A stretch of 63,201 nucleotides of DNA, counting the filler, from Collodictyon triciliatum (lineage: Eukaryota), in the NCBI GenBank assembly GCA_043381765.1. It is 4 parts of 4 records of this genome, joined end to end, with 100 filler letters (N's around TTAATTAATTAA, not from the genome) between each part and the next. Parts side by side here need not be neighbours in the genome. Positions count along the whole stretch, not along the records: positions 61,529 to 63,201 come from JBHJMP010001341.1; 3 more parts are not named here. One strand, given 5' to 3'. Both the position numbers and the translations under genes were made by a program. Position 1 is the stretch's first letter; the number at the start of each line of letters is the position of its first letter. Below, one piece after another: positions 1 through 63,201 of this stretch. Under the pieces are notes generated by a model. It was not told the origin of the DNA. It saw only the letters and a program-made list of their open reading frames with translations, and made no database searches.

Positions 1-160
1 ACAAAGAAACAAAGAAACAAAGAAACAAAGAAACAAAGAAACAAAGAAACAAAGAAACAAAGAAACAAAGAAACAAAGAAACAAAGAAACAAAGAAACAA
101 AGAAACAAAGAAACAAAGAAACAAAGAAACAAAGAAACAAAGAAACAAAGAAACAAAGAA
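1..160. repeat. (ACAAAGAA)n tandem repeat, about 20 copies
   Basis: Perfect 8-mer array read directly from the window start. Confidence 0.95.
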
Positions 161-283
161 AAAAACAAGATACGAGGAAAGACATCTCAATCAAACTTGG
201 AAGGTATATGTCTCTCGTCCCTAGGCATACTTTGTACATTTTTTTTTAACAAACAATCTAATATTGCCATGAACAAATAATTA

Positions 284-2420
<2,137 letters not shown>

Positions 2421-3428: not shown

Positions 3429-5051
3429 TTGCTGATGGAACCGCGCTTTCACAAAAACAAGGCCTACGCACACTCCAGACGGCAGCCCGAAATCGAAAGC
3501 ATAGAAGGTGGCTTTGGCCGGTTGGCCGAAGTTGGGCAGCTTCTAAGTCAGGTGGCGCGTGGTGAGGATCGATCGATATTATCGAGGCCTCATCGTGACT
3601 CCCCACAGGAGGCCGCCAAGCCGCCGTCGCAATATGCTTCACAAGGACTAAGCAAAGGATCTTCAGATACCCTTAATCGGCTCCATCATATGGCCGGATT
3701 ACTAGACTCTTTGCTGATGCACTCAGAGTCCAACCAGAATCTTGGATTCACGCAAACTAAAAAGTTGGAAGATGAACGAGAGCCTTGCAGATACGACCGA
3801 CGGCAGAGCGTACCCGCATATCGCCCTTTCTTTGAGACAGATTACGTTCGAAATCACAGGCTGTATTATTATCCAATCACGCTTTCTTCATCCTCCTTGG
3901 CGTTTGTCCCATCAACAAGAGACCTGGCTCCTTCTCTCCACGATTCGTCCCCGCATATGTATCCACCCAGTCATTCCGAGGGCCTGGAGCCACGACTTGT
4001 GATGCTTCCACATGCCCCTTTCCATTCAGACTCTGCTCCATCTTCTGCCCGACAAAACTTTCGTGATACGAATACGCAGGACCATCAGCAAAAATCCTTG
4101 GAAAATCACTCTCTCAGGGTTGATGCGCAGACACAAACAAATATTCCTGGGCGCTCTGAAAAAAACATCTTGCACAATGCCCGGCCCAGATCAGCTCCTC
4201 CTAAATCCATCTTAAAGCTAGATAATCCAAGTGCGCGTCAACTATCTCCGACTTATTCTCAAAAACAAACTCGATTTGAAATACCAAACACACCGACATC
4301 TCCTTCATCTCCTTTATATGCTCATGTGAAAGCAAAAGTAGTAACTCGCAACAAAGATTCAAAAGCGAATTCAAACCAACTCACAAATGATGGCGATGAA
4401 CTAGTGGAAATCCCTCTTTACCTAAATCCCGAAGCTGAGCTTGAAATGGACATTTCTCGAAAGCCAATACCCCAGAAGCATGCATCATCCTCGTTTATTC
4501 CAAACAGGCAAGAAAACAACCAACCAAAATCTCCAAATCCTCGTCTTTTGGAGTCCAAGGCAACACTAAAAACGAAAGAACTACAACAGCTGGAACCACG
4601 GGAAATAAGAAAAACACAAATTCAATTAGAATCCCCATCCGCCAAAGGATACTCTGGCGAGGCAAAAGGTTCTATCAAGAAGACGCCGTCTCCACTGCTC
4701 ATACCAGCCACGCGCAGTAAGACCACCCCCAAATCCCCACAAATTCAGATTTTTGAATCTAAAAGAAAAACAACCCTGAATGAGCCCCAGACACCAAAGA
4801 CACCCCAAACACCTGGTAAAGTTCCAACTCCTAAAGGAAAGCTCTCCGCAACTCAGGATGGGAGCCGTGACAGGAAAAAGCCTCCTCCTATTTCATCGTT
4901 CATAAAGAGCTCTAAGGCCCCACCAAAGTCCCCACAGATTCAAATATTTGAACCAAAATCTGGTCATCCAGCCAAACAGGTTCATGACAAACCTAATGAT
5001 TGTGATTTTAAACCCACGTCAAAAATGGAGTCTTTAAAGAAATCGTCATCG

Positions 5052-14831: not shown

Positions 14832-14903
14832 GGGCTCAATCGGGAATCGAACCCGAGACCTCTCCGACCCGAACGGAGAATCATACCACTAGACCATTAA
14901 GCC
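14832..14903 (-). tRNA. tRNA-Pro (anticodon CGG)
   Basis: GGCTTAATGGTCTAGTGGTATGATTCTCCGTTCGGGTCGGAGAGGTCTCGGGTTCGATTCCCGATTGAGCCC (72 nt): acceptor stem GGCTTAA/TTGAGCC, anticodon arm CTCCG-TTCGGGT-CGGAG, T-loop GGTTCGATT, typical Pro D-arm. Confidence 0.95.
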
Positions 14904-16075: not shown

Positions 16076-18200
16076 TTACTTGAGTCTATCGATGCCCTTC
16101 TCCTCAATCAGTCCGATGTTTTTTGCCGCAGACTTTGTTTGTGGGTGCTCGTCCCCAAACTTAGACTTAAAAATCTGATAAGCCATTTTATAGTAGCTTG
16201 TTGCTTGGTCGAACCTGCGTGTAAGAAAGGGGTTGTAAAGGAGTACGCGTAGAAAAACTAGGGTTCATAATTCCACTCGAGAGGGAATTAATTATTTTTT
16301 TTAGGGAATACCAGGGAAAAGAAAAAAGAAGAGGGAATTATGCCCACCTCCCCAGCTGATAGCAGACACTCCCAAGATTGTTATATGAAATAGCGACATT
16401 AGGATGGTCGTCTCCTAACTTCTTTTTGTCTATGACCAGGGCTTTTGTGAAATACTCCAGGGTTTGGTCGATTCTAATACATTTTCACAAAGGAACACCA
16501 CACAAATCGACGTATCAATAAAGAGTGTCCTGATTATTCTTCTTTTAAACTAATATCATGAAAATTATAGGGCTGGCCCCGTCCATTACTTCCCCAAAGA
16601 TCTGTACAGAACACCGATATTGTTGAAGGAGGAGGCAATTTCAGGATGATCTTCTCCGTATATTTTCCGGCATATTTCTAAATCTCGGAAGTAATATTCT
16701 AGAGCCTGTTCGTATCTGATGAGGTGAAATCATAAAAATTTAAATGATTTACATTTTGAATTGATAAAAAAAAAAAAGAAAGTAGTTATGATATTTCAAA
16801 AGCTAATTTTTCTTTCTCTTTCGATATATTTTCAAATGGAACCTTTCCATTTTCTTAAATACAACGCCCAGATTGTTAAAGCACGCGGCAACATCTTCAT
16901 GTTCCTCTCCGTATGCGTGACGTCTGATTGCCAGTGATTTTTCGTAATATTCCAATGCTTGTTCGTATCTAAAGAGACATATTCTCATGTGACTTTCACG
17001 CTTGAATGATAGGGAGAAAAAAAAACAATACTATGAACCAATTAATTAATTAATAAATAAATAAACAAAAAAAATAAACAAAAGTGAAAAATGCGCAGCT
17101 ATTCAGGTCTGACCGCATGACGAAACCATTTAAATATAATAGGATGTATATTGTGACGACAACCGAATTTCCCAACCTTCCGATGGCTTCATATATCCCT
17201 CCTAGATTATTGAATGAACCAGCGACACTTGGATGGTTCTCGCCGAATTTCCTCTGGTAAATCTCCAGGGCTTTTTGATGGCATTTAAGAGCTTCGTCAT
17301 GTCTAATTATAAGAACCATTCACAAACTTCACTTTGTGTAAAATATACCAATACCATTCGAAGAAGATTTTCTCATGACAGATTAACAGAGAGTTATCTT
17401 AGTCATACTTTCCAATCGATAGGTATATTGCACCGAGATTATTGTAAGATGAGCCAACAACGCTACTGTTGTTTCCTAGTACACTTTTACGAATGGAAAG
17501 GGCCTCGTTGTGATTTTCAAGGGCCTCTTCAAACCTAGATTCCGATTTCAAGTCACACGTGAGACCAAAAAAAAAAAATAGAAGGAAAAAAATATATAGA
17601 ATGAAATAAATAAATAAATAAATAAATAGATAGATAGAATGAAATAAAATATAAATACACTCATGGAATCACATGTGACGTGGACAGGATTCAACATAGG
17701 ATGCTGAGTTACGAAAATCTGGCAACATGTTCAAATAAGAATACACGATAAAATTGATATAGAGACCAACTTTCCAACAGTGTAGCAAACGTTTCCGATA
17801 TTATTATATGTGTCTGCAACGTCGACATGTTGGTTTCCCAGTAGAGTTATGCGAAGTGCCAGCGATTTTAGAAAACATTCCAGGGCTTCAGGGAATCTAT
17901 TTCAATTCAGCCTTAATCCACTTGTTTTACACAAACTAATATCAGGCGTTGCTGAATATAATGGGGTATATTCTAAAAGGCAAATAATTTAAATTAGAAT
18001 AACTAAATTTCGCATTTGCGTGTATTTACCTGCCCATCTTTGTATACACACTGCCAATATTGTTATATGAAGAAGCCACTTTTTCGTGGTGTTCTCCATG
18101 ATTGGTAATCCAAATACCCAAGGCCTTTGTATGAGATTGAAGTGCCAACTCGAATCTGTTATTTTTTTTTTAAAAAAAAAGCCATTGATAAAAAGAGCAA

Positions 18201-21773: not shown

Positions 21774-21873
21774 NNNNNNNNNNNNNNNNNNNNNNNNNNN
21801 NNNNNNNNNNNNNNNNNTTAATTAATTAANNNNNNNNNNNNNNNNNNNNNNNNNNNNNNNNNNNNNNNNNNNN
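21774..21873. other. Artificial contig spacer (N-TTAATTAATTAA-N)
   Basis: Six-frame stop linker between N runs, repeated at 43632-43731 and 61429-61528. Confidence 0.97.
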
Positions 21874-47109: not shown

Positions 47110-47374
47110 ACCAAATAAATAGAAATGGCAAACCCTTGGAAAAAAAATAATAGTAGATAGGCCTTGTCTTTTTTCTGTTATTTTGAATTTATATCTGAAT
47201 TCTTCATTTGCATTTTCCTGTATCATGAAGGATGCTCTACAGAAAAGTCATAAATAACACTGTGACCTCTTTATAAAAAGGTATACACTCAAATATCACA
47301 ACTTTTTTTTTTTTTTTTGGTTTGCTGTGTACCTTGGCCTTTATTGGCTGCACGAGATTGCACATCGGACACTT

Positions 47375-47414
47375 TTTTTATTATTATTATTCTTCCTTTC
47401 AATTTTGTGCAGGC
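47375..47414 (-). mobile_element. LINE 3'-terminal fragment (family B) with 15-bp TSD
   Basis: Minus strand GCCTGCACAAAATTGAAAGGAAG(AAT)4AAAAA lies between two copies of GCACATCGGACACTT (47360-47374 and 47415-47429). Confidence 0.75.
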
Positions 47415-47433
47415 GCACATCGGACACTTATAT

Positions 47434-53967
<6,534 letters not shown>

Positions 53968-54280
53968 CCGCGCTACGATGCAAGCCTTTTTAAACAGCTG
54001 ATTCTGCGGCCATGAATCGTAGAGTAATTCGATCGGAACCATGGATCATAACACTTGGGTGATGAATCGGTTGGGTTTGCAGATTGCTTATCTTTTGTTT
54101 CATATTGGCAGAAGCGTTTGCGTCAGATCTTCTGGTTTGGACGCGGAAACTGAGTGTAATATTATAATTTCCAGAATAGAATATACCATATGTATTTTTA
54201 AGTCATATTTCATTGAATAAAATATTACTTTTTTCTTTCATTGAAAGTTCCATCTCTGGATTCGATCAAACCTGATTTGA

Positions 54281-54329
54281 TCACAAATCACAAATCACAA
54301 ATCACAAATCACAAGTCACAAATCACAAA
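54281..54329. repeat. (TCACAAA)7 in the divergent intergenic region
   Basis: 7-mer array about 115 bp upstream of the RRM gene ATG. Confidence 0.85.
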
Positions 54330-54444
54330 GTTAACCCACCCGACTTTTTCGGCCTGAAGAAAAAGCACACTCTCACAAGAGATAAGCATAGCGCAAGCAC
54401 AGGACGGAAGAAAACAGAAGAAGGACCAATCTAAGCTGAGAGGA

Positions 54445-57400
54445 ATGGACGAGCAAGAAAACATTGATCAGAAACACGCCACTGCACCGGACTCCAACAC
54501 GGAAAGCGTGCCCAAGGAAACACGGACAAGTGCGTCGCAAAGTGACTCGTTTCGTGAGGACTCTGCACCTGCCCAAGAAATCGTAAACACCGTTCTTGAT
54601 CAGGACAGTCAAGAGAACGAGCCAAGCGCAGACGAAATCGTGGACTCTGAGCACGATGAACAGCACGCAAGTGAGTATGAGTCTGCCCAAGAAGGAGCGA
54701 ACCAGCAGGCCCAAGAGTTTGGCGGACAAGAAGATCACAACAGAAACGGCTTCGGCGAGGACCACGATAACCATGATGAGCAGCATCAAAATGACTATGG
54801 CGGATATGGCGATGACGCCCATGATGAGCCAGACTATGAGAATGAGCAACAGCAGCAGTATTATGACGAGGCCTGTAGCGATGGGAACGAAGTACTGAAT
54901 GATGACAACGCTGATGCCCAGGGCGAGGAAAGCTGCGAGGAGCAGAACGATCAAGGCGACGAACAGCCGGCAAAGGAGACTCAAGGAGACGGGGACGATG
55001 CAGAGGCTACAAATGAAGGGACCACTGAGCCGGCAGCCGCCAGTTCTGCAAATGATAAGAAGCCAGAAAAAAGTAAGAAATGGCGACTCAATTGCTGCGT
55101 TCTTCATATATATAAGCGCTACCATTTATTTATTTAAAAAAACAGCAAAAAAAAATCTATGGAGCAGTTTTTCTCAAGAAATAATATTTTATGGATTCCG
55201 TATTGTTTTGTGAATTAATGGTTTATTGAAAGCATTTTTTTGGATCGTTAGAGGGATTCGTGAAGTATTGGGGATAATATGAGACCAAGTTTTTATTATT
55301 GTTTACACTGAACTCACGGGCTCATTTCTAGACAAAGTAGGAAAAGCAGCATTGAAGAAAAGAAGCATGGTTTACGTTGGTGGCCTTGGGGGTGTTGTGA
55401 ATGAGCAGGTGACTCCGTACTTTTTTTTTTATAACTTCTCTTCTCTCGATACTCTTGTTTTTAATTGTTTGGTGATATATATATTCAGTCTGTTCATCAA
55501 TATCTGTTTCGATTTTCGGTTTCAGGATTTGAGAACAGCTTTCAGTCCATTCGGAAATCTTGGAATGATCAGCTTCGAAGACACAGCAAGATGTAATAAG
55601 AGCAAAAATATGGAGAATACTCTTACGTCATACACACCACTATCTCAGACTTTTTTTTATGACGGTGTTGATTGTTCACTCATGTTCAATTGACCAGAAG
55701 ACCACTAACACCCGATGGATTTTTGTATCCAAATGCGAGAACATGTGTTCGTAAAAAAAAAAAAGTAATCTAAACGAGACTTTTATCATTGATTTTTCTG
55801 TTGCATAGCGCTTGCATATGTTCGTTTTACTTCGGTCGAAGAAGCTGCCAAAGCCGCAGAGGCAATGAACGGAGCTACGATTGGCTCCGCAAAGGTTAAA
55901 GTCGAACATCCTGATGTTTATTCGATGGTCTTTGCCAGCAATTTGCCTCTTGACATGAACCTCCAAAGTGTTCGAAGGTGGTTTGAGGCATTCGGGACAG
56001 TGGAAAACGTACAGGTATATCCCAACTTGAGTTTTCCAGTCTTATTTAATACTTGACATTTCACTCAAAAGGCTTTTACACAAGAATCTGGATTTAAGGC
56101 ACACACATATGAGTGTTCAACATTCAGTAGCAACATAACTATGGTTTTGATGGTTTTTTTTTAAATATTAAATTCTTGACTATTGGGTAATATGCGATTC
56201 AGGTAATGTGCAAGGCTGACGGTTCCAGCAAAGGACATTGCTATGTCGAGTATAAAACCATCGGTGAGGCACATAACGCTCGAATTCATGCACCCACGAA
56301 GCCGATAGGTGATCGAAATGTCCACGTAGATATATTTGATTGCAGGTGAGCTGTCTTTCATCGATTTTTTTTAATTTTTTTTTTTTACCTTTCTCTTTTT
56401 TTTTTCTTTTCTGAATTCAGGGCGTTATTAAAAAATTTTAACAAAATTTTAACATTCAATACTTTCGAATAGTGATGATGCACAATTTGATTCAAAATGC
56501 CTGTGTGTTGAGAATCTACCTTCATCTGTCAAAGTATAGTTGACCAAGCCTGTTTTTTTTTCCTTCACTTCATTTCATTTGTTTCTTTTCAGTAACGGTT
56601 CAGAGATTTTTGTGCGCACTTGAAATTATCTTTTTTTTAAAAAACACCGAAATCTCGTCATCATAAATGGTATGTTTGAGCCTCATTACGCCGAAAATCA
56701 TGTAGGATGAGGCCGAGTTTCGCATGCTATTTGAAGGGGTTGAGGGTGTCAAAGATGTTTTCTTTTCTGCGGATAATCGCACCCAGTCTGGTAACATGGG
56801 CTTTGTTGAATTCAACAGTGCTGAAAACGCAGATTCAGGTTTGCATAGTTCTGATAAAGTGAATATTCAATTATTGCGTCCTTCTGGCATCGATTCAAAA
56901 AAGAATAAAGAAATACACTGCTTACTCATTTTCGCCCCCTTGTAAATATAATTTTTGAATCTTTTGATCAAAAGCCTGGAGCAAGATGAACGACTTTGAC
57001 GTCAAGGGCTCTAAACTCAGGATCAGCTATAACATTCCGTCCAAAACAATATCAGTTTGTACAATTATGACACGTCCTTTTTGATGTCGCCTTACTACAC
57101 CGCTTCCTCTCTTTCTTTTTTTTCTTCCTTATCCTGGACAAGTAGAGCCCAATCTATACGTGATATTCGAATAGATCGATTTTGTAACTTTAGTTATACC
57201 TCTTAGATGATGCGACCTCAAAGCAAAAGTTCAGGTATTTTATGAGAATCATTTCCAATCATACAAATTCATTCAATTTAATTTCACACGATTACTCGAT
57301 TAGCAACAGTCAAGAGCAGCAGCCAGAGAATAAATGCGGCAATCAGACCTAATGTAACTAACTCAGCACTCAAATCAAATCTGAGATATCCTTAACTTCC

Positions 57401-60283
57401 CATTGCAAATGCGACTGATTCCCTCAATTATTCTATGATGGCAGACTGGAAAAGTTGTTCAATCGTCATCCCGGCCTGTTAACAGAGACAAACCCCTTGT
57501 TAGAAACCCGGCTCAAGGAATTTTCAGAGGTGACAATTGTTTGTTACATTTTGTAGACCCCTTCCACGACCTTAGACTTGCAGAACCAATTAGTGATTTG
57601 ATTTTTTTCCCGCCTTTTAGGTCCAGGAAACCGCTCAATCGTAAATTCTCTCGATTACACATTACACATCACACATTACACATTACACATTACACTCATA
57701 ACTCTCATATGCATACTCTACTTAATTTTCGACGTTGACAAATAAGCACCACCAGAAAACAACTTGAATCAAAAAATGCTGACATTAAAATTCACCATGA
57801 AATACTTTGATGAAGAAAGCATCCCCACCAATGCAACCCCCTTTGTCATGCTGTAATAGCCACGTGCCAACGCCCAACCAGTCGGACGCATGCAAATCCA
57901 AGGCGACCGCAAAGGGATTCCTCATCCGCAGCGAATGCCGCTCCATCCAAATATGGGGCCGCGTCAAGTAGGCTACGACATGCTTCGCAACGAGCCCGGC
58001 ATACTGGATTCTGTCCGGACTTTTGCCCACAATCAACATCGACCAGACATCCTTGCACACGATGACAGGAGCGCACATGGCAGACAAAACAGACCACTTG
58101 AAAGACACCCGAGAAATCAGACTGGCGGAACACATCAGCCCGGTCGCCCATTGCAAACAGACCCCCGCTATTCATACCAGAGTGGAGGTGGTGTTTTGGG
58201 CCAGCCGCACGCACCAATATTCCAGCCTCAAAGGGAACGGATGCCCACGCATGGCGCAGACCACCTGCCTTTCGGCTACGAGCAGAGCCCACCCATGCCA
58301 GGTTATGCGAGACGGCCCAGTCTCCTCGAGCACGAGAGAGATAGAGATATAATCAGAGAAGGAGATAGGATTGGTAACCCTGCACGCAATACCTATCGGC
58401 TTGGCCATCACGGCGACCGAATTCCTCCCAACGAAGCCGACTACCGATTCGAAGCGCCGTACGCGCCGCAGCCGCACCAGCAAAGAGCTCCAAACAGCCC
58501 TGCCAGCAGACCTCAAATGCAGCCGATGGGCCGCCGGGATGTGCATCAGGCGCAATATTATGAGGACAGCCGATTCCACCACAGAGTAGAGGCGGTAATC
58601 ACACCCGAGCGAGGAATAGAGAGAGAACGGGGCCAATACGCATATCCCCACGAGCAGCAACACCAGCGCCCGATTCTGGGCCATGAGCCATACTCTGGTG
58701 TGGATTCTCAGCGGCGAGGCAGCAACCAGAGCCTCCGACAGCAAAACATGGGGCCTGTGCATCACAGAGACTCGTCAGCCGACACGGCCAATCATTACCG
58801 CGATAACGCATCCCATTACTCGCAGAGGCCAAACGATTATCCTGGAGCCCTTCTGTCCGACCAGTCCCATTCGTACCAGGCCCAGCATCAAACTCAGCAC
58901 CAAAGCAACCCGTATTCGTATCAGAGCCGACCAGAGAATCGCACAGGCCCAAGCTCTGTCCTCGGGGTACTGCCAGCATCAAACCAGAGACAGCAACCGC
59001 AGCACAGCCCAGTGAGTGCAGTGAAAGCACCGACATCAGCAGCGCTCAGCGCTCAAGGAGGATTCACCAACCAGCAGTCCATCTTGGGCCAGACAAGCAG
59101 TGCGGCTCACTCGCGTGCGTCTGTTGAACACGGGATGGCATCAAACAAGCGCCAGAACCCGACGCAGCCAGCGCCCTATCCAAGCGGTTCGCAGACGCAA
59201 GGAGCCAATCAGAGTCAGTACACAGCGGCAAATGCATCAGCTCAGTTCGCCCACAATACCACAGCTTCTCACAGTGGACAGAAGAGGCCTTTGGAGCAGC
59301 CAGCCAAGGTACAATCACAAAATTTTTTGTTTTGTTTTAATTTGTTTGTTTGTTTGTTTGTTTGTTTGTTTGTTTGTTTGTTTGTTTGTTTGTTTGTTTG
59401 TTTGTTTGTTTGTTTGTTTGTTTGTTTGTTTGTTTGTTTGTTTGTTTGTTTGTTTGTTTGTTTGTTAGTTAGTTAGTTATATGTCAGTTCATATCTCCTT
59501 TCTTTTGGCACTCATTTCTAAACCTATACGCAAACTCAATGCCAAATAGACTATTGAATTTTGTGTACATAAATCCATGTAGTGAGAAATTAACATACTC
59601 GCAGATTGCCCATTCTCATGCTATTGTATTCATCACACCTGATTTCTATCCAGGCCACTGCAGTCATCCCAATCGCAAATGGCGGTCCGATTGTTGTGCC
59701 GATTGCGAGTCAGTCGGCCATCGGAGCCTCAACATCGGCATCATTTGCGCAACGTGCGATGCAATCCACACAGCCTGTTTTGCCGCACAGCCAGTACCAC
59801 CAAAATTCATCCGCTCCAGTTCTCAGTGCATCTTACAGCACACAGCAGCCGATTCTGACCAACGACTTATCTGCTTCATATGGAAGCTACACAAACACAG
59901 CAGCCCAGCCTATAACATCAACCTATGGATATGCACAAGCTTATGTATGTCCACTTCTATCATTGTCTTTGTGTAATTGCCTCTTGTTCAAATTATATGT
60001 GTATATTCATTCTCTGCACTTTCGATGAGGTTTCTTTTTCTTTTTCTTTTACAGGCTGACTACAATACCAACGAATTATTGATTACTTGAATTCTGATGG
60101 GTGCATACATTGGTTTATTTGTCGTAGAATGCTGCGTATAATCAGGCTCCGCAAGCTGCGGCCTCGTATTCATACCATCAAACATCGAGTCAGGGCCATT
60201 ACGGTTCTGGTCTTGCAGCTGCACCAAACGGCTCTGCGAACATGTATTACGGTGGCTCAGAATACAAAAAATCGCGTCGCTAA
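54445..60283 (+). CDS. Multi-RRM RNA-binding protein with acidic N-terminus and long Q/P/H/Y-rich low-complexity C-terminus
   Basis: RNP2/RNP1 pairs VYVGGL..LAYVRF, VFASNLP..KGHCYVEY and LCVENLP..GNMGFVEF. Large exons 57858-59308 and 59653-59944; the probable last exon from about 60128 ends YYGGSEYKKSRR-TAA. Confidence 0.85.
59340..59465. repeat. (TTTG)n intronic microsatellite
   Basis: Read directly. Confidence 0.95.
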
Positions 60284-61329
60284 GCACTGCATCGATGTAA
60301 GTCTAATTTAATGTGATGGCTACGTTATTTATATATTAATGATAATGACACGAACGATTTCAATTAATTTATCTTTTTTTAATCTTGTGAAATATTTTGC
60401 CATTAAAAAAAACATGCCTAATGGAAATAGCACACTCACACAATTTGTATGGAATGGGAACATATGAATACATAGTTTGGTGCTGTTTGAAGTATTCTTA
60501 CATGAGCTCCTGATGAAAACTTGACATTCCTTCAATTATGTCACGGTTGAATTGAATCATTTCATCTATATCTAAGTGATATGACACCTTTCCTCTCCTA
60601 TCTGTTCTTTTTCGAAAGAAAAAAAAAAGCAAAACAACAACATTACATCCGCACCACAACCCTTCCAGTTTCACACATTTTTATTACATTCTATTCCTCA
60701 GACAATCATCTCATCAAAAAAATATGTTATTTTCTTATTCTGACTGCTAAAGGCCTAAAAAAAAAAAAAGGATGAATTTTTGCAGACTCGATGTATTCAT
60801 TTGAACTTTGCATTTGACCATATTTTCGTTGGGGAAGAGAGAGATTTTTGAGAAACGAAGTTCATGAGGCATATCGACAGAATGAGTATGAGCATGACAA
60901 TCACGATGACAAAAACAAATTGAAATGTGAATCACCGATTCCACAAACCCGTCGTGCTGAGCTTCTCTGTTATCCATCTGCATCACACTTTGAAAGAAAC
61001 ACACGAAACTGAGTTGCAATCGCCACTCACGCCCCACCCACCAAGCAATCTATCTTCTTCCAGTACCCGCCCACCAACATTTCTTTCCTCTCTTTTAGTT
61101 TTCTTTCTTTTTTCTTTCATCTTACATCCCATCTATTCCTTTAGCAATCCAATTACAGGCAGTTTTTTTTTATTTTGAAATCACCTTTCTTCATCCTTTA
61201 TTTTTAATCCAGGAACATTTTAAACAACCACCAAATCACCTCCTGTTCTCTTTTTTCTCACTCTTCACATTATATCGGCTTGGCCACCCCAAACAACATT
61301 TTTTTGACAAACACGCAACTTCACAAAGA

Positions 61330-61363
<34 letters not shown>

Positions 61364-61371
61364 AAACCCCA

Positions 61372-61416
<45 letters not shown>

Positions 61417-61428
61417 AAAAAAAAAAAA

Positions 61429-61528
61429 NNNNNNNNNNNNNNNNNNNNNNNNNNNNNNNNNNNNNNNNNNNNTTAATTAATTAANNNNNNNNNNNNNNNN
61501 NNNNNNNNNNNNNNNNNNNNNNNNNNNN
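61429..61528. other. Artificial contig spacer
   Basis: N-TTAATTAATTAA-N. Confidence 0.97.
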
Positions 61529-61530
61529 AA

Positions 61531-61986
61531 AACCAACAGTTTTTAAAGAATGCTATTAATGATAAAGATCACGTATTGACATTCTGTAGATATTTGTTTA
61601 CAAAGTATGATAATACTTGGAACAGCGAAAGTTATGTTATTGGTAAACAAAAGGAAAAAGAACTTTGGAAACAACAGATACATTTACAAATTACACAAAC
61701 AGACCAGTTCTTACTAATGACGTATGAAGATTATGTGCTTGTTGGCCCAGATGATAGATTTGCTGCCTTATATGTTAAGGATCACACACCCACACAAGTT
61801 TACGATCTGTTCAAAGATGTAATGACAAGAGCAGGACGTAAAGATATATTGACAATTCAATATTTTGGACAAGAGTTGAGAAGGACGGGAATTAAAAAAA
61901 ATCAAAGCAGAAAGTACGTGTTTGACGACAAACAGGTCAAAGAACATTTAAAGAAGAGACATCTTCTTGATGATCAACAAGAATAA
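61531..61986 (+). CDS. C-terminal part of a putative D5/SF3 primase-helicase (winged-helix-like tail); 5' truncated
   Basis: Frame is open from the contig edge. ..TFCRYLF..TQVYDLFK..TIQYFGQEL..GIKK..KYVFD pattern recalls viral D5-helicase C-termini, but no Walker motifs are present in the window. Confidence 0.45.
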   Translation, partial: NQQFLKNAINDKDHVLTFCRYLFTKYDNTWNSESYVIGKQKEKELWKQQIHLQITQTDQFLLMTYEDYVLVGPDDRFAALYVKDHTPTQVYDLFKDVMTRAGRKDILTIQYFGQELRRTGIKKNQSRKYVFDDKQVKEHLKKRHLLDDQQE

Positions 61987-62005
61987 ATGGCTTAGTCCAC
62001 ACATT

Positions 62006-62443
62006 TTATTGATACTCGTCAGGTGTAGGTGTTGATTTGAGAGAGTAAGAAATTATAGGGGGAGAGTCAGGAGGGGTCAGGGCTTTGCGGACGCGTTCGG
62101 CAGCAGCAATCAGAGAATTAGGGCTGCCAGATTCGAGTGAAGAGTTCATAGAACTTGAAGAAGTCCCTGTGTAATCAACGAGGGGCATCATCATAGCGGG
62201 CGCTTCGACGATTTGAAATTCATGCGAGCCATTGGTTTGCTTTCTTCGTGATTTTCTATTCACGTAGGACTTGTGGTTGGATCTGCGGAGTCTCCTGGCG
62301 ATCTCTACCATTTGTCTCACACCGTCCAGGTTCTCTCCCCATTCGATAAAACACAGGTAGTTAAGTCTTGCCAGCTCTTCTCCAGTCAGCGTGCGGGTGG
62401 TCATGTCGCTCATCTGTTCTTCTCTGTTGACGGTGCGGGCCAT
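62006..62443 (-). CDS. Orphan ORF of about 145 aa (basic middle, Ser/Pro-rich tail)
   Basis: MARTVNREEQ...PTPDEYQ; fills the gap between the converging helicase-like ORF and the diverging integrase. Confidence 0.6.
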   Translation of the reverse strand: MARTVNREEQMSDMTTRTLTGEELARLNYLCFIEWGENLDGVRQMVEIARRLRRSNHKSYVNRKSRRKQTNGSHEFQIVEAPAMMMPLVDYTGTSSSSMNSSLESGSPNSLIAAAERVRKALTPPDSPPIISYSLKSTPTPDEYQ

Positions 62444-62533
62444 TGTTTGCTTAAAGTACTTATCAATTATACAGTAAGGTAAAATTGTTTTTAAGCTGCG
62501 TTTTTTACACAAAAAAAAATTATTCTTTATGTA

Positions 62534-63201
62534 ATGAGCAACGCAAGCACTAGTGATCAATACAATGAGAAGTTACAGAAAAGGTACAACGAGCCAGGGC
62601 AAGTAAACAGCGTCGAAGCGATGTATCGCCACTTCAACAAAGAAATACCTCGCAGTTACATTGAGGCTTGGATGAAAAAGAATCCCTATCAACAAATTAG
62701 TAAACCTGCGTACAAAAGCAAGGACGTGACTTCCTTTAATGTCACAGACCCAAGTTACGCCCAGATAGATTTGATATATACCAAGGGACTTTATCCAGAA
62801 GACCATATTGGATTGAAATACAATTATCTAATGACATGTGTGGTGCTTTTAACACGCAAGGTATTTATATATCCGCTGATTGATAAGACTCTGGCCGAAA
62901 GCAAAAAGGCTGTGCTTGAATTCAAGAAAGATTACCCTGCGTTGAAAGTTATTCAAAGCGACAATGGCACAGAGTTCAAGTACGAGAAAGCATGGCTACA
63001 AGAACACGGCCTCAAGCAAGTCAAGTCGAGTCCGTACAACCCTACGAGTCAGGCCTATGTGGAGCGCATGAATAGTGTGGTAAAGAATAGTCTCTACAAG
63101 TACCATCAAAAGACAGGGGAAACCTTAACGAAAGAGGTGCTAGAAAAAACTGCAGACAGCATAAACGATCAGCCGAACCGTGACACCGGGGTGATTCCTA
63201 A
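62534..63201 (+). CDS. Retroviral-type (rve) DDE integrase of Polinton/virophage type; runs off the window
   Basis: Absent from the ORF track because it has no stop. Reads MSNAST..RYNEPGQVNSVEAMYRHF..IPRSYIEAWMKKNPYQQISKP..YAQIDL..YLMTCV..TRKVFIYPL..KVIQSDNGTEF..SPYNPTSQAYVERMN..SINDQPNRDTGVIP, with an intact D-D-E triad. Confidence 0.92.
   Translation, partial: MSNASTSDQYNEKLQKRYNEPGQVNSVEAMYRHFNKEIPRSYIEAWMKKNPYQQISKPAYKSKDVTSFNVTDPSYAQIDLIYTKGLYPEDHIGLKYNYLMTCVVLLTRKVFIYPLIDKTLAESKKAVLEFKKDYPALKVIQSDNGTEFKYEKAWLQEHGLKQVKSSPYNPTSQAYVERMNSVVKNSLYKYHQKTGETLTKEVLEKTADSINDQPNRDTGVIP

Follow-up and report, generated by a model that had tools for sequence, protein, structure and literature searches.

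A probable replication-integration module of a Polinton-like virus or virophage on a short contig of the Collodictyon triciliatum assembly

Introduction

Does a short, gene-dense piece of DNA assigned to the eukaryote Collodictyon triciliatum come from a virophage or Polinton-like virus (PLV) resident in its chromosomes? In the original prediction, positions 61529-63201 of the window (i.e., the whole stretch of 63,201 nucleotides that was analysed) had been taken as a candidate endogenous element of this type, recent, possibly active and capsid-encoding. Two questions can be differentiated: (i) to which class of elements the DNA belongs; and (ii) in whose genome it resides. Regarding the first question, sequence homology indicates that 61529-63201 probably comes from the interior of a small dsDNA viral genome of the PLV/virophage class and corresponds to its replication-integration module. 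Regarding the second one, we lean slightly towards considering that the fragment is not demonstrated as part of the host genome: its physical location may be the chromosomes of C. triciliatum, but also those of a protist sampled along with it, or free virus particles.

Results

Structure of the contig

The window is composed of four contigs joined by artificial linkers. Since the 100-base construct at 61429-61528 recurs unchanged at 21774-21873 and 43632-43731, positions 61529-63201 constitute a separate contig set after an unrelated one, namely a eukaryotic contig with long poly(A) runs at its end. The 1,673-bp contig is present in its entirety, without host flank, and both its ends fall inside genes. 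As contigs unrelated to one another have been strung together in the window, sharp changes at the linkers are an artefact of the assembly format, not biology. The abrupt switch in sequence character, formerly read as a property of the chromosome, is one of them, and in practice any change of character at the three linkers should be taken with this warning in mind. The description of the DNA as gene-dense and repeat-free was correct: three ORFs occupy 1,563 of its 1,673 bases (about 93% coding) and, within 61529-63201, no direct repeat family was found, only one imperfect 14-nt inverted pair. The following features can be distinguished:

61429..61528, no strand: contig-joining linker (44 N + TTAATTAATTAA + 44 N), artificial
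61531..61986, plus strand: 3' end of a D5-type primase/SF3 helicase (151 codons and stop), its 5' side cut by the contig start
62006..62443, minus strand: conserved small ORF of 145 aa, family unassigned, divergent from the integrase, with relatives identified by sequence
62025, no strand: variation breakpoint, from which several lake contigs match rightwards only
62444..62533, no strand: AT-rich spacer of 90 bases separating the integrase from the divergently transcribed small ORF
62534..63199, plus strand: 5' part (222 codons) of a stand-alone DDE/rve integrase (rve E 1.4e-6), cut by the contig end

Elsewhere in the window, intron-containing GT92, Sulfotransfer_2 and Peptidase_C26 genes are found on the other three contigs, and an Rfam search of the whole window returned a single tRNA (14832-14903) and nothing else.

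The integrase

The integrase ORF begins with an ATG at 62534 and is open to the contig end. That this ATG is its own start agrees with six full-length relatives (453-497 aa), all of which start within a few residues of the window Met. Relatives P0001-P0006 are 95-55% identical to the window ORF. The part present spans a helical domain at the N-terminus and all three catalytic residues, D79 (QIDL), D143 (SDNGTEF) and E177 (VERMN), which were rightly predicted as intact: all 12 integrases in the alignment have them, even those with an identity of only 21-22%. The term "intact" is applicable to the part present, which amounts to only about 46% of the expected ~484 codons. The Pfam rve model (PF00665; cut-off 32.6) gives 28.9 bits for the window fragment, 29.2 for P0001 and 36.5 for P0006. 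In a phmmer comparison, the integrase matches that of prototype foamy virus (PFV) with E 4e-4, and the SD..G (second Asp) and VER.N (Glu) motifs of the window line up with their counterparts in the PFV protein. A dN/dS of 0.066 relative to the lake metagenome contig L003 (222 codons) indicates strong purifying selection. As had been claimed, neither RT nor RNase H was found upstream of the integrase by Pfam search. When a full-length integrase was compared by tblastn with 50,697 phage records, no match was obtained.

Retroviral and Maverick/Polinton integrases typically possess an HHCC zinc-binding N-terminal domain. Residues 1-75 of the window integrase contain no Cys and one His, that is, the HHCC motif is absent and, in consequence, the Polinton-style N-terminus proposed earlier is doubtful. 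An AlphaFold model of the 484-aa L003 orthologue (93% identical; pLDDT 75.7) shows instead a small N-terminal domain of four short helices. The same model predicts a C-terminal SH3-like beta-barrel (strands 259-334), in which the VR pair of a GxxVRV-like motif is invariant among the aligned integrases, followed by a helical/basic tail of ~150 residues; the window copy ends at residue 222.

A separate set of GTDB matches to A1 was rejected as relatives of the element: out of 169 pattern matches, 6 were confirmed (33-39% identity across 64-86 residues), and they correspond to repeated IS-type genes of one bacterium.

The helicase tail and the small ORF

The presence of a helicase tail, also part of the original prediction, is upheld by its 77% identity to the C-terminal residues 622-770 of P0007, a protein of 770 aa with a DUF5906 NTPase domain (E 5.6e-13) and a weak PriCT_2 match. 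The tail itself matches Pox_D5 just below the cut-off (E 7.9e-4; 20.3 bits versus 21.4). A replication gene and an integration gene are hence found on one contig in 61529-63201. This combination is not exclusive to the window: P0007 and the integrase P0004 lie together on one 4,214-nt contig, and a helicase and integrase pair also occurs in the metagenome contig L002 and in the IMG/VR locus L008.

The small ORF had been regarded as an orphan, but it is actually a conserved gene, with relatives at 96% (P0008), 77% (P0009) and 61% (P0010) identity and a 95% identical copy in L003 (tblastn). Its conserved core corresponds to the N-terminal ~70 residues, and the window copy lacks a C-terminal tail of ~27 residues present in three relatives. 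In L004, a distant member of 74 aa adjoins the integrase (hhalign probability 95%, E 4e-8). The dN/dS versus L003 (0.096; 138 codons) again indicates strong purifying selection. No relative was found in Pfam, PHROGs or PDB, the best PDB hit (E 0.011) being an unrelated channel fusion. The spacer between this gene and the integrase is presumably a two-way promoter region.

Relatives in freshwater and the link to the host genome

The closest relatives of the contig come from lakes. At the DNA level, L003 matches it with 93% identity and L005, likewise a JGI lake metagenome contig, with 92%, and pieces at 85-99% identity were found in 4 of 4 lake/freshwater runs examined (X1, X2, X4 and X6, from four studies). 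Nine runs from nine studies, these four among them, each contain 5-13% of the sampled words of the contig, with no RNA runs listed among the nine. Because no run exceeded 13% of those words, the exact strain is not seen outside this assembly.

On the left, the L003 alignment to the window begins at 62022, and X2 record 12, X4 record 14 and X6 diverge from the window to the left of 62025 or 62021, where they have loose ends; the junction form of the window is spanned by X1 record 2 (61985-62135) and X2 record 11 (61798-62054). Run X2 thus holds both forms of the 62025 junction, and this coexistence points to a diverse environmental population. On the right, L002, L003, L005 and an 8,403-nt contig from X4 all end 1.0-1.2 kb beyond the integrase stop, L003 and L005 doing so in the same 41-nt tandem repeat. 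That four independent contigs end there, two of them in the same repeat, is what a small linear genome with its terminus at this place would give. On record, family contigs reach at most 8.4-15.9 kb (P0003 lies on the 15.9-kb contig and P0008 on the 8.4-kb one); P0010 lies on a contig of 5.3 kb.

These observations bear directly on the origin of the fragment. It is readily conceivable, without our going so far as to call it probable, that the contig derives from a co-sampled source unrelated to the host genome, either free virus particles or a small freshwater protist or alga that carries a virus or provirus of its own. A 1.67-kb contig with both ends inside genes is what low depth predicts; no other piece of the element appears in the window; and both the 92-93% identical lake contigs and the pieces recovered from every lake/freshwater run examined, including the two junction forms in X2, are in line with such a source. 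However, the metagenome signal would look no different if endogenous copies were carried by an organism abundant in lakes, and the words of the contig never went beyond the above-mentioned fraction in any run, the exact strain being seen in this assembly alone.

A second account, possible albeit somewhat doubtful, is that a virophage or PLV has recently been integrated, possibly in multiple copies, in the chromosomes of the organism behind the other three contigs. The contig would then be short because endogenous copies are repetitive and broke the assembly. According to PMC10120064, endogenous PLVs and virophages are located in regions that are difficult to assemble from the short reads of protists, and they are often mistaken for contamination, which favours this account. 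Furthermore, the genes are intact as far as present and under purifying selection, an integrase is present, and the GC content of the contig (40.6%) is inside the range of the three host contigs (36.5-40.8%). Nevertheless, purifying selection is equally expected for a free virus and, since the GC content of the lake contigs L003 and L005 is similar (43.6-43.8%), composition is uninformative on the host. Neither a virus-host junction nor a target-site duplication was found on the 1,673-bp contig, which ends inside viral genes; the sole link to its neighbour is the artificial linker; and tblastn detected no further pieces of the element in the other three contigs, whose intron-bearing genes do not pinpoint a protist host.

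Gene context in more distant relatives

The nearest relative with gene context is L002, a 10.4-kb metagenome contig that has three genes in common with the window lineage: (i) the integrase, 55% identical; (ii) the helicase, with 28% identity to P0007 (E 3e-53); and (iii) an ORF of ~195 aa located 3' of the integrase, with 32% identity (E 1e-20) to L003 and L005. In addition, L002 encodes a Pox_A32 packaging ATPase (E 6.2e-8; 32.8 bits versus a cut-off of 22.8), a 480-aa fibre-like protein and a 256-aa ORF that resembles viral DUF5901 clusters (ESM feature score 0.98; TM 0.75-0.83 to Atlas models). The Atlas neighbours of the latter belong mostly to Nucleocytoviricota. This 256-aa ORF is a possible candidate penton, to be taken as a lead only: its single-sequence AlphaFold model has a pLDDT of 41.9, no Pfam match to DUF5901 or V18-19 was obtained at E up to 1, and our search found no literature on DUF5901 (PF19254).

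The 480-aa ORF was considered, and rejected, as a major capsid protein (MCP): it has no PDB sequence match, and in the Atlas it lies next to fibre-like clusters of phages, although its recognition score does not reach the threshold. It has 244 relatives at E up to 1e-3; the 150 listed range from 66 to 2,913 aa and show repeated short matches, as expected for a fibre-like protein. No double jelly-roll (DJR) MCP was recognised in the 10.4 kb of L002, no Pfam match to Sputnik MCP or V18-19 penton was found in 8 L002 ORFs, and neither pPolB nor an adenain-like protease was detected in the window or in L002, which is incomplete. Compared with the window lineage, L002 has the helicase on the opposite strand and lacks the small ORF. 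Owing to these differences and to the 55% and 28% identities, its morphogenetic genes may not carry over to the window lineage.

At a greater distance, tblastn against IMG/VR identified 7 loci with related integrases (24-29% identity), 4 of which were annotated. Among them, L006 has Sputnik MCP (5.3e-57) and penton (1.4e-17) domains; L008 has a Sputnik penton (4.1e-30) together with a PriCT_2/D5_N/DUF5906 helicase; and L009 and L010 have D5-type helicases. Integrase relatives of 21-29% identity sit in virophage contigs with Sputnik-type capsid genes. No close relatives were found in IMG/VR with the window integrase, P0007, the 256-aa ORF or the ATPase of L002, or the helicase alignment A4; a weak match of 32 residues to the window integrase (L001) was disregarded.

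Discussion

Class of the element

The assignment to the PLV/virophage class put forward in the original prediction holds through homology and the gene neighbourhoods of the relatives, but "capsid-encoding" is not supported for the element itself. No capsid, penton, ATPase or protease gene is present in the window, the A32/FtsK-type ATPase being absent because the contig is too short; such an ATPase is encoded by the relative L002. To place the fragment, four types of systems can be compared with it.

With PLVs, among which bioRxiv 10.64898/2026.06.19.733378 describes groups whose morphogenetic genes are NCLDV-like, the lineage has in common a stand-alone RVE integrase and a primase-SF3 helicase, an A32-type ATPase, here in L002, its freshwater occurrence, and modular swaps between close relatives, such as the 62025 breakpoint and an extra ORF in L005. 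In contrast, no MCP was seen in the window lineage and no close relative of it was found in IMG/VR; its integrase is long (about 484 aa, including the helical/basic tail) and devoid of HHCC; and it carries the conserved small ORF divergent from the integrase.

Mavirus-type virophages (Lavidaviridae/Maveriviricetes) likewise combine an SF3 helicase with an rve integrase within a small genome and, in mavirus, both genes adjoin each other. The mavirus integrase is a structural neighbour of the L003 orthologue model (rank 7 in a BFVD search, E 3e-11), and the distant integrase relatives mentioned above lie in contigs with Sputnik-type MCP or penton. On the other hand, the L002 ORFs do not match Sputnik MCP or V18-19, while true virophage loci do so at 1e-17 to 5e-57; Pox_A32 is found in L002 but not in the annotated L006 and L008 ORFs at E up to 1e-3; and neither pPolB nor a protease was seen in the window lineage.

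Mavericks/Polintons and MELD viruses/adintoviruses also have an integrase of retroviral type whose gene stands apart and is translated from a start codon of its own, and a MELD virus integrase is the best BFVD match of the orthologue model (E 5.7e-14), a likeness by structure. Unlike Mavericks/Polintons, the element has no pPolB found, its replication gene being a primase-helicase, L002 has no adenain-like protease, and the integrase lacks the N-terminal HHCC.

Finally, retroviral and Ty3 integrases (PFV, HIV-1, RSV and Ty3) show the same order of a DDE core and a beta-barrel domain, and match the orthologue model in Foldseek with E 3e-12 to 1e-9 (3e-12 for intasome chains). The phmmer match to PFV is a further likeness, but identity in the structural alignments is only 12-17%; moreover, the window integrase is outside a Pol polyprotein and differs in its N-terminal domain.

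Two other origins must be weighed against the PLV/virophage class. That the contig derives from a giant virus (Nucleocytoviricota), or from an element residing in the genome of one, seems very improbable. The A32 ATPase, D5-type helicase and DUF5901-like proteins are also giant-virus hallmarks, and the Atlas neighbours of the 256-aa ORF point in the same direction; but the contigs of four relatives stop shortly after the integrase, two of these within one shared tandem repeat, and the longest family contigs on record do not exceed 15.9 kb. Besides, the same matches are explained by PLV groups of small size that have RVE integrases along with morphogenetic genes of NCLDV type, as described in bioRxiv 10.64898/2026.06.19.733378, where PLV groups that combine RVE integrases with primase-SF3 helicase fusions are reported as common in freshwater. 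It is very improbable that the contig comes from a mobile element without capsid, such as a DDE transposon of the Ginger/TDD type or a plasmid similar to transpovirons, that has only an integrase and a helicase in common with viruses: the absence of virion genes from the window, of HHCC from the integrase and of a recognised DJR MCP from L002 would suit it, but L002, with three syntenic genes in common, has an above-cut-off A32 ATPase and a fibre-like protein, distant integrase relatives occur in virophages with capsid genes, and a primase-helicase of 770-837 aa is a replication gene of viruses and plasmids. Ginger-type transposons are not known to carry a primase-helicase.

Proposed biology and implications

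Returning to a small dsDNA virus of the PLV/virophage class, the relatives suggest how the complete element might work. The helicase-primase would replicate its genome, and the integrase, by means of its DDE centre, would insert it into a eukaryotic host chromosome. The integrase gene would lie about 1-1.2 kb from a repeat-bearing genome end; on the opposite side, beyond the helicase, a packaging ATPase and penton-like and fibre-like proteins would be encoded. The lineage circulates in freshwater lakes.

A more specific proposal, which we regard as rather unlikely, is an undescribed freshwater PLV lineage that is truly integrated in this eukaryote. As proposed, this lineage would combine (i) giant-virus-like morphogenetic genes (a Pox_A32-type ATPase and a DUF5901-like penton) with a primase-SF3 helicase; and (ii) a long HHCC-less integrase, ~1 kb from a repeat-bearing end, with a divergent small partner ORF that might act as a regulator or directionality factor. 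Such a lineage would be missing from IMG/VR and, apart from this host, known from lake metagenomes alone.

The small ORF and the unusual N- and C-terminal parts of the integrase are modest leads for PLV classification. Should the contig truly belong to the host genome, a freshwater PLV lineage known only from metagenomes would gain a named host, and this eukaryote would provide another case of integrating small DNA viruses, possibly protective against giant viruses.

Structure of the record

A scan of the whole window revealed identical 100-base constructs at 21774-21873, 43632-43731 and 61429-61528. The last of them (read within 60000-63201) lies directly before 61529 and consists of the twelve letters TTAATTAATTAA, which put a stop codon in each of the six frames, with 44 N on either side. 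The three identical linkers therefore divide the window into four concatenated contigs.

Separate contigs, based on the linker positions
1-21773, first contig
21874-43631, second contig
43732-61428, third contig
61529-63201, fourth contig (1,673 bases, the entire region of interest)

Features spanning or abutting the three linkers are artefacts of the record format. The abrupt switch to intronless, gene-dense DNA described in the original prediction is one of these: the change falls at a linker between unrelated contigs, with no chromosome boundary. A fourth copy of TTAATTAATTAA (17042-17053), without flanking N and within AT-rich sequence, is probably a chance match and no linker. The third contig ends, just before the linker, in two poly(A) runs 32 and 42 bases long (61331-61414), a likely reason why assembly stopped there.

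The other three contigs carry intron-bearing eukaryotic GT92, Sulfotransfer_2 and Peptidase_C26 genes. Rfam matched the window just once, at a tRNA gene (14832-14903, minus strand), and a 528-aa Gln/His/Pro-rich ORF on the third contig (57890-59476) ends in a short tandem repeat (about 59370-59476) that translates as (FVCL)n.

Gene content of the last contig

The last contig is gene-dense, as had been stated: three ORFs occupy 1,563 of its 1,673 bases, and no direct repeats were found in it.

Features of the contig 61529-63201
61531-61986, plus strand, helicase tail (last 151 codons of a larger gene)
62006-62443, minus strand, small ORF of 145 aa, conserved, without known family match
62534-63199, plus strand, 5' part of an integrase gene (first 222 codons)

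The helicase tail is a real gene end: it shares 77% identity with residues 622-770 of P0007, a primase-helicase of 770 aa in which a DUF5906 NTPase domain (E 5.6e-13) and, weakly, PriCT_2 were recognised. The tail itself matches the Pox_D5 C-terminal domain at E 7.9e-4, slightly below the Pfam cut-off. Taken together, these DUF5906, PriCT_2 and Pox_D5 matches correspond to a D5-type primase/SF3 helicase architecture.

The small ORF had been called an orphan, which holds insofar as it has no relative in Pfam, PHROGs or PDB; it is nevertheless conserved, with relatives 96, 77 and 61% identical and a 95% identical copy (tblastn) on the metagenome contig L003. Furthermore, a distant 74-aa member adjoins the integrase at the same position on another integrase-bearing contig, L004 (hhalign probability 95%, E 4e-8).

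Three environmental contigs, from the freshwater metagenome runs X2, X4 and X6, match the window rightward of 62025 or 62021 and differ from it leftward. This breakpoint agrees with the protein alignment, in which the last four residues of the window's small ORF are peculiar to it, whereas its relatives P0008, P0009 and P0010 share a conserved tail of about 27 residues at that point. The window's own junction is present in X1 (record 2, 61985-62135) and X2 (record 11, 61798-62054) and is therefore no assembly chimera; in X2 both junction forms occur side by side. The population is thus diverse, and the window's junction between helicase and small ORF is one of two or more modular variants within it.

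The integrase

Full-length relatives of the integrase have 453-497 aa and are 95-55% identical to it. Its catalytic residues are intact, as predicted: D79, D143 and E177 are invariant in 12/12 aligned integrases, five of them just 21-22% identical, and the corresponding motifs of prototype foamy virus integrase line up with the second Asp and the Glu. Nothing similar to a reverse transcriptase or RNase H lies upstream of it on the contig, again as claimed. Compared with L003, the integrase shows a dN/dS of 0.066 (dS 0.32 over 222 codons) and the small ORF one of 0.096 (dS 0.29 over 138 codons), values which indicate that both are maintained as functional genes.

The AlphaFold model of the L003 orthologue (12-sequence alignment, mean pLDDT 75.7) predicts a small N-terminal domain of four helices, then the RNase H-like core, and after it a long helix, a beta-barrel (259-334) and, last, a helical basic tail. 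Its best structural match in BFVD is an integrase of a MELD virus (E 5.7e-14), with the mavirus rve integrase in seventh place (E 3e-11) and mostly retroviral Pol proteins among the others. The closest PDB structures are intasome chains of PFV, HIV, MVV and RSV; Ty3 comes at rank 22. Retroviral and Maverick integrases have an N-terminal HHCC zinc-binding domain, whereas the N-terminal 75 residues of the window's integrase contain no Cys and one His, so that this domain is absent and the proposed Polinton-style N-terminus is not an apt description.

Relatives and genome context

L003 (2,984 nt) is 93% identical to the contig at the DNA level from 62022 onward, and another metagenome contig, L005 (2,555 nt), 92% from 62663 onward. 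In L003 a full 484-aa integrase is followed by a convergent 193-aa Lys-rich ORF and then, to the contig end, by a 41-nt tandem repeat (2855-2984). L005 ends in the same repeat (2504-2555), about 1 kb past the integrase; from these sequences, the repeat is possibly a genome terminus or terminal repeat. An extra 143-aa ORF between the Lys-rich ORF and the repeat in L005 (1930-2361, minus strand) is missing from L003, so that the two elements, although 96% identical otherwise, differ slightly in cargo. L002, L003, L005 and an 8,403-nt contig of X4 all end 1.0-1.2 kb past the integrase stop; together with the 41-nt repeats, this suggests that the integrase gene is close to a genome end with repeats in these relatives and, by extension, in the window's element.

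The nearest relative with gene context is L002 (10,409 nt), which shares three neighbouring genes and is thus the same kind of element: (i) an integrase 55% identical to the window fragment; (ii) an 837-aa primase-helicase (28% to P0007 over 577 residues, E 3e-53); and (iii) an ORF of about 195 aa after the integrase, 32% identical to its counterpart in the close relatives (E 1e-20). Further genes of L002 include one for a packaging ATPase of the A32 type, which matches Pox_A32 with 32.8 bits (E 6.2e-8; cut-off 22.8) and has a terminase-like PHROGs match. Directly downstream of the ATPase block, a 256-aa ORF without Pfam match resembles viral DUF5901 clusters (language-model features 0.98, Atlas structure TM 0.75-0.83), mostly of Nucleocytoviricota, one of Preplasmiviricota, and is a candidate penton; no paper on DUF5901 was found in the literature. 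No double jelly-roll major capsid protein (MCP) was recognised in the 10,409 nt of L002, whose left end is missing. One further ORF was considered as a capsid gene:

L002 1067-2509, minus strand, 480-aa Ser/Thr/Asn-rich protein with repeated N-terminal motif

It was rejected on account of its relatives (244 at E up to 1e-3), whose lengths vary widely (66-2,913 aa among the 150 listed), its repeated short matches and its Atlas neighbours, which are phage fibre-like clusters; these features suggest a fibre or host-recognition protein.

L002 also has a telomere-like (TTAGGG)5.5 array (3651-3683), situated where 678 bases separate the penton-like ORF from the ATPase. An ORF open at its 5' end (3-1031, plus strand), with a long Pro-rich N-terminal part and no family match, has 38% GC, against 28-30% elsewhere in L002.

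Class of the element

Gene content, relatives' neighbourhoods and structural neighbours support the assignment of the fragment to the polinton-like virus (PLV)/virophage class, as proposed. That the element is recent, active and capsid-encoding, as the prediction also had it, is conjectural. Seven IMG/VR loci have integrases 24-29% identical (tblastn); the studied lineage itself was absent from that database in six scans. Four of the seven were annotated: Sputnik MCP domains (5.3e-57, 1.8e-32) occur in L006 together with a V18/19 penton; the V18/19 penton of L008 (4.1e-30) is accompanied by a PriCT_2/D5_N/DUF5906 helicase; and L009 and L010 have D5-type helicases, without Pfam-recognised capsid gene. 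True virophage loci thus give strong Sputnik MCP/penton matches, whereas L002 gives none; conversely, no annotated ORF of L006 or L008 matched Pox_A32 (E up to 1e-3), while the L002 ATPase does. For these reasons, L002 seems closer to a PLV than to a virophage of the Sputnik or mavirus type.

PLV groups whose morphogenetic genes are NCLDV-like are described in a 2026 preprint: about 60% of their members have RVE integrases, primase-SF3 helicase fusions occur, and replication modules are often exchanged (bioRxiv 10.64898/2026.06.19.733378). The present lineage fits that description; assignment to one of the groups would take an MCP.

Source and significance

The contig has a nearly even chance of being DNA at low depth from a lake virus or protist sampled together with the organism. 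Integration in the genome of this organism, as originally predicted, is possible and somewhat less probable: the contig starts and stops inside viral genes, and a search of the remaining 61 kb of sequence gave no further piece of the element. Nevertheless, endogenous PLVs fragment in short-read assemblies and get mistaken for contamination, according to PMC10120064, so that a short orphan contig is compatible with integration, and equally so with a co-sampled source. GC content does not discriminate between the two.

At most 13% of the sampled contig words were found in any public run. Matching words came from nine runs of nine studies, every one of them labelled as a lake-water or freshwater metagenome, with no RNA run among those listed, and pieces at least 85% identical occur in 4/4 of those compared (X1, X2, X4 and X6), where contigs of 1,968 and 8,403 nt cover 62025-63201. 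This kind of element is already well known and abundant in fresh water; the present one is of modest interest for the absence of its lineage from IMG/VR in the six scans, the conserved small ORF beside its integrase and the integrase's unusual terminal domains.
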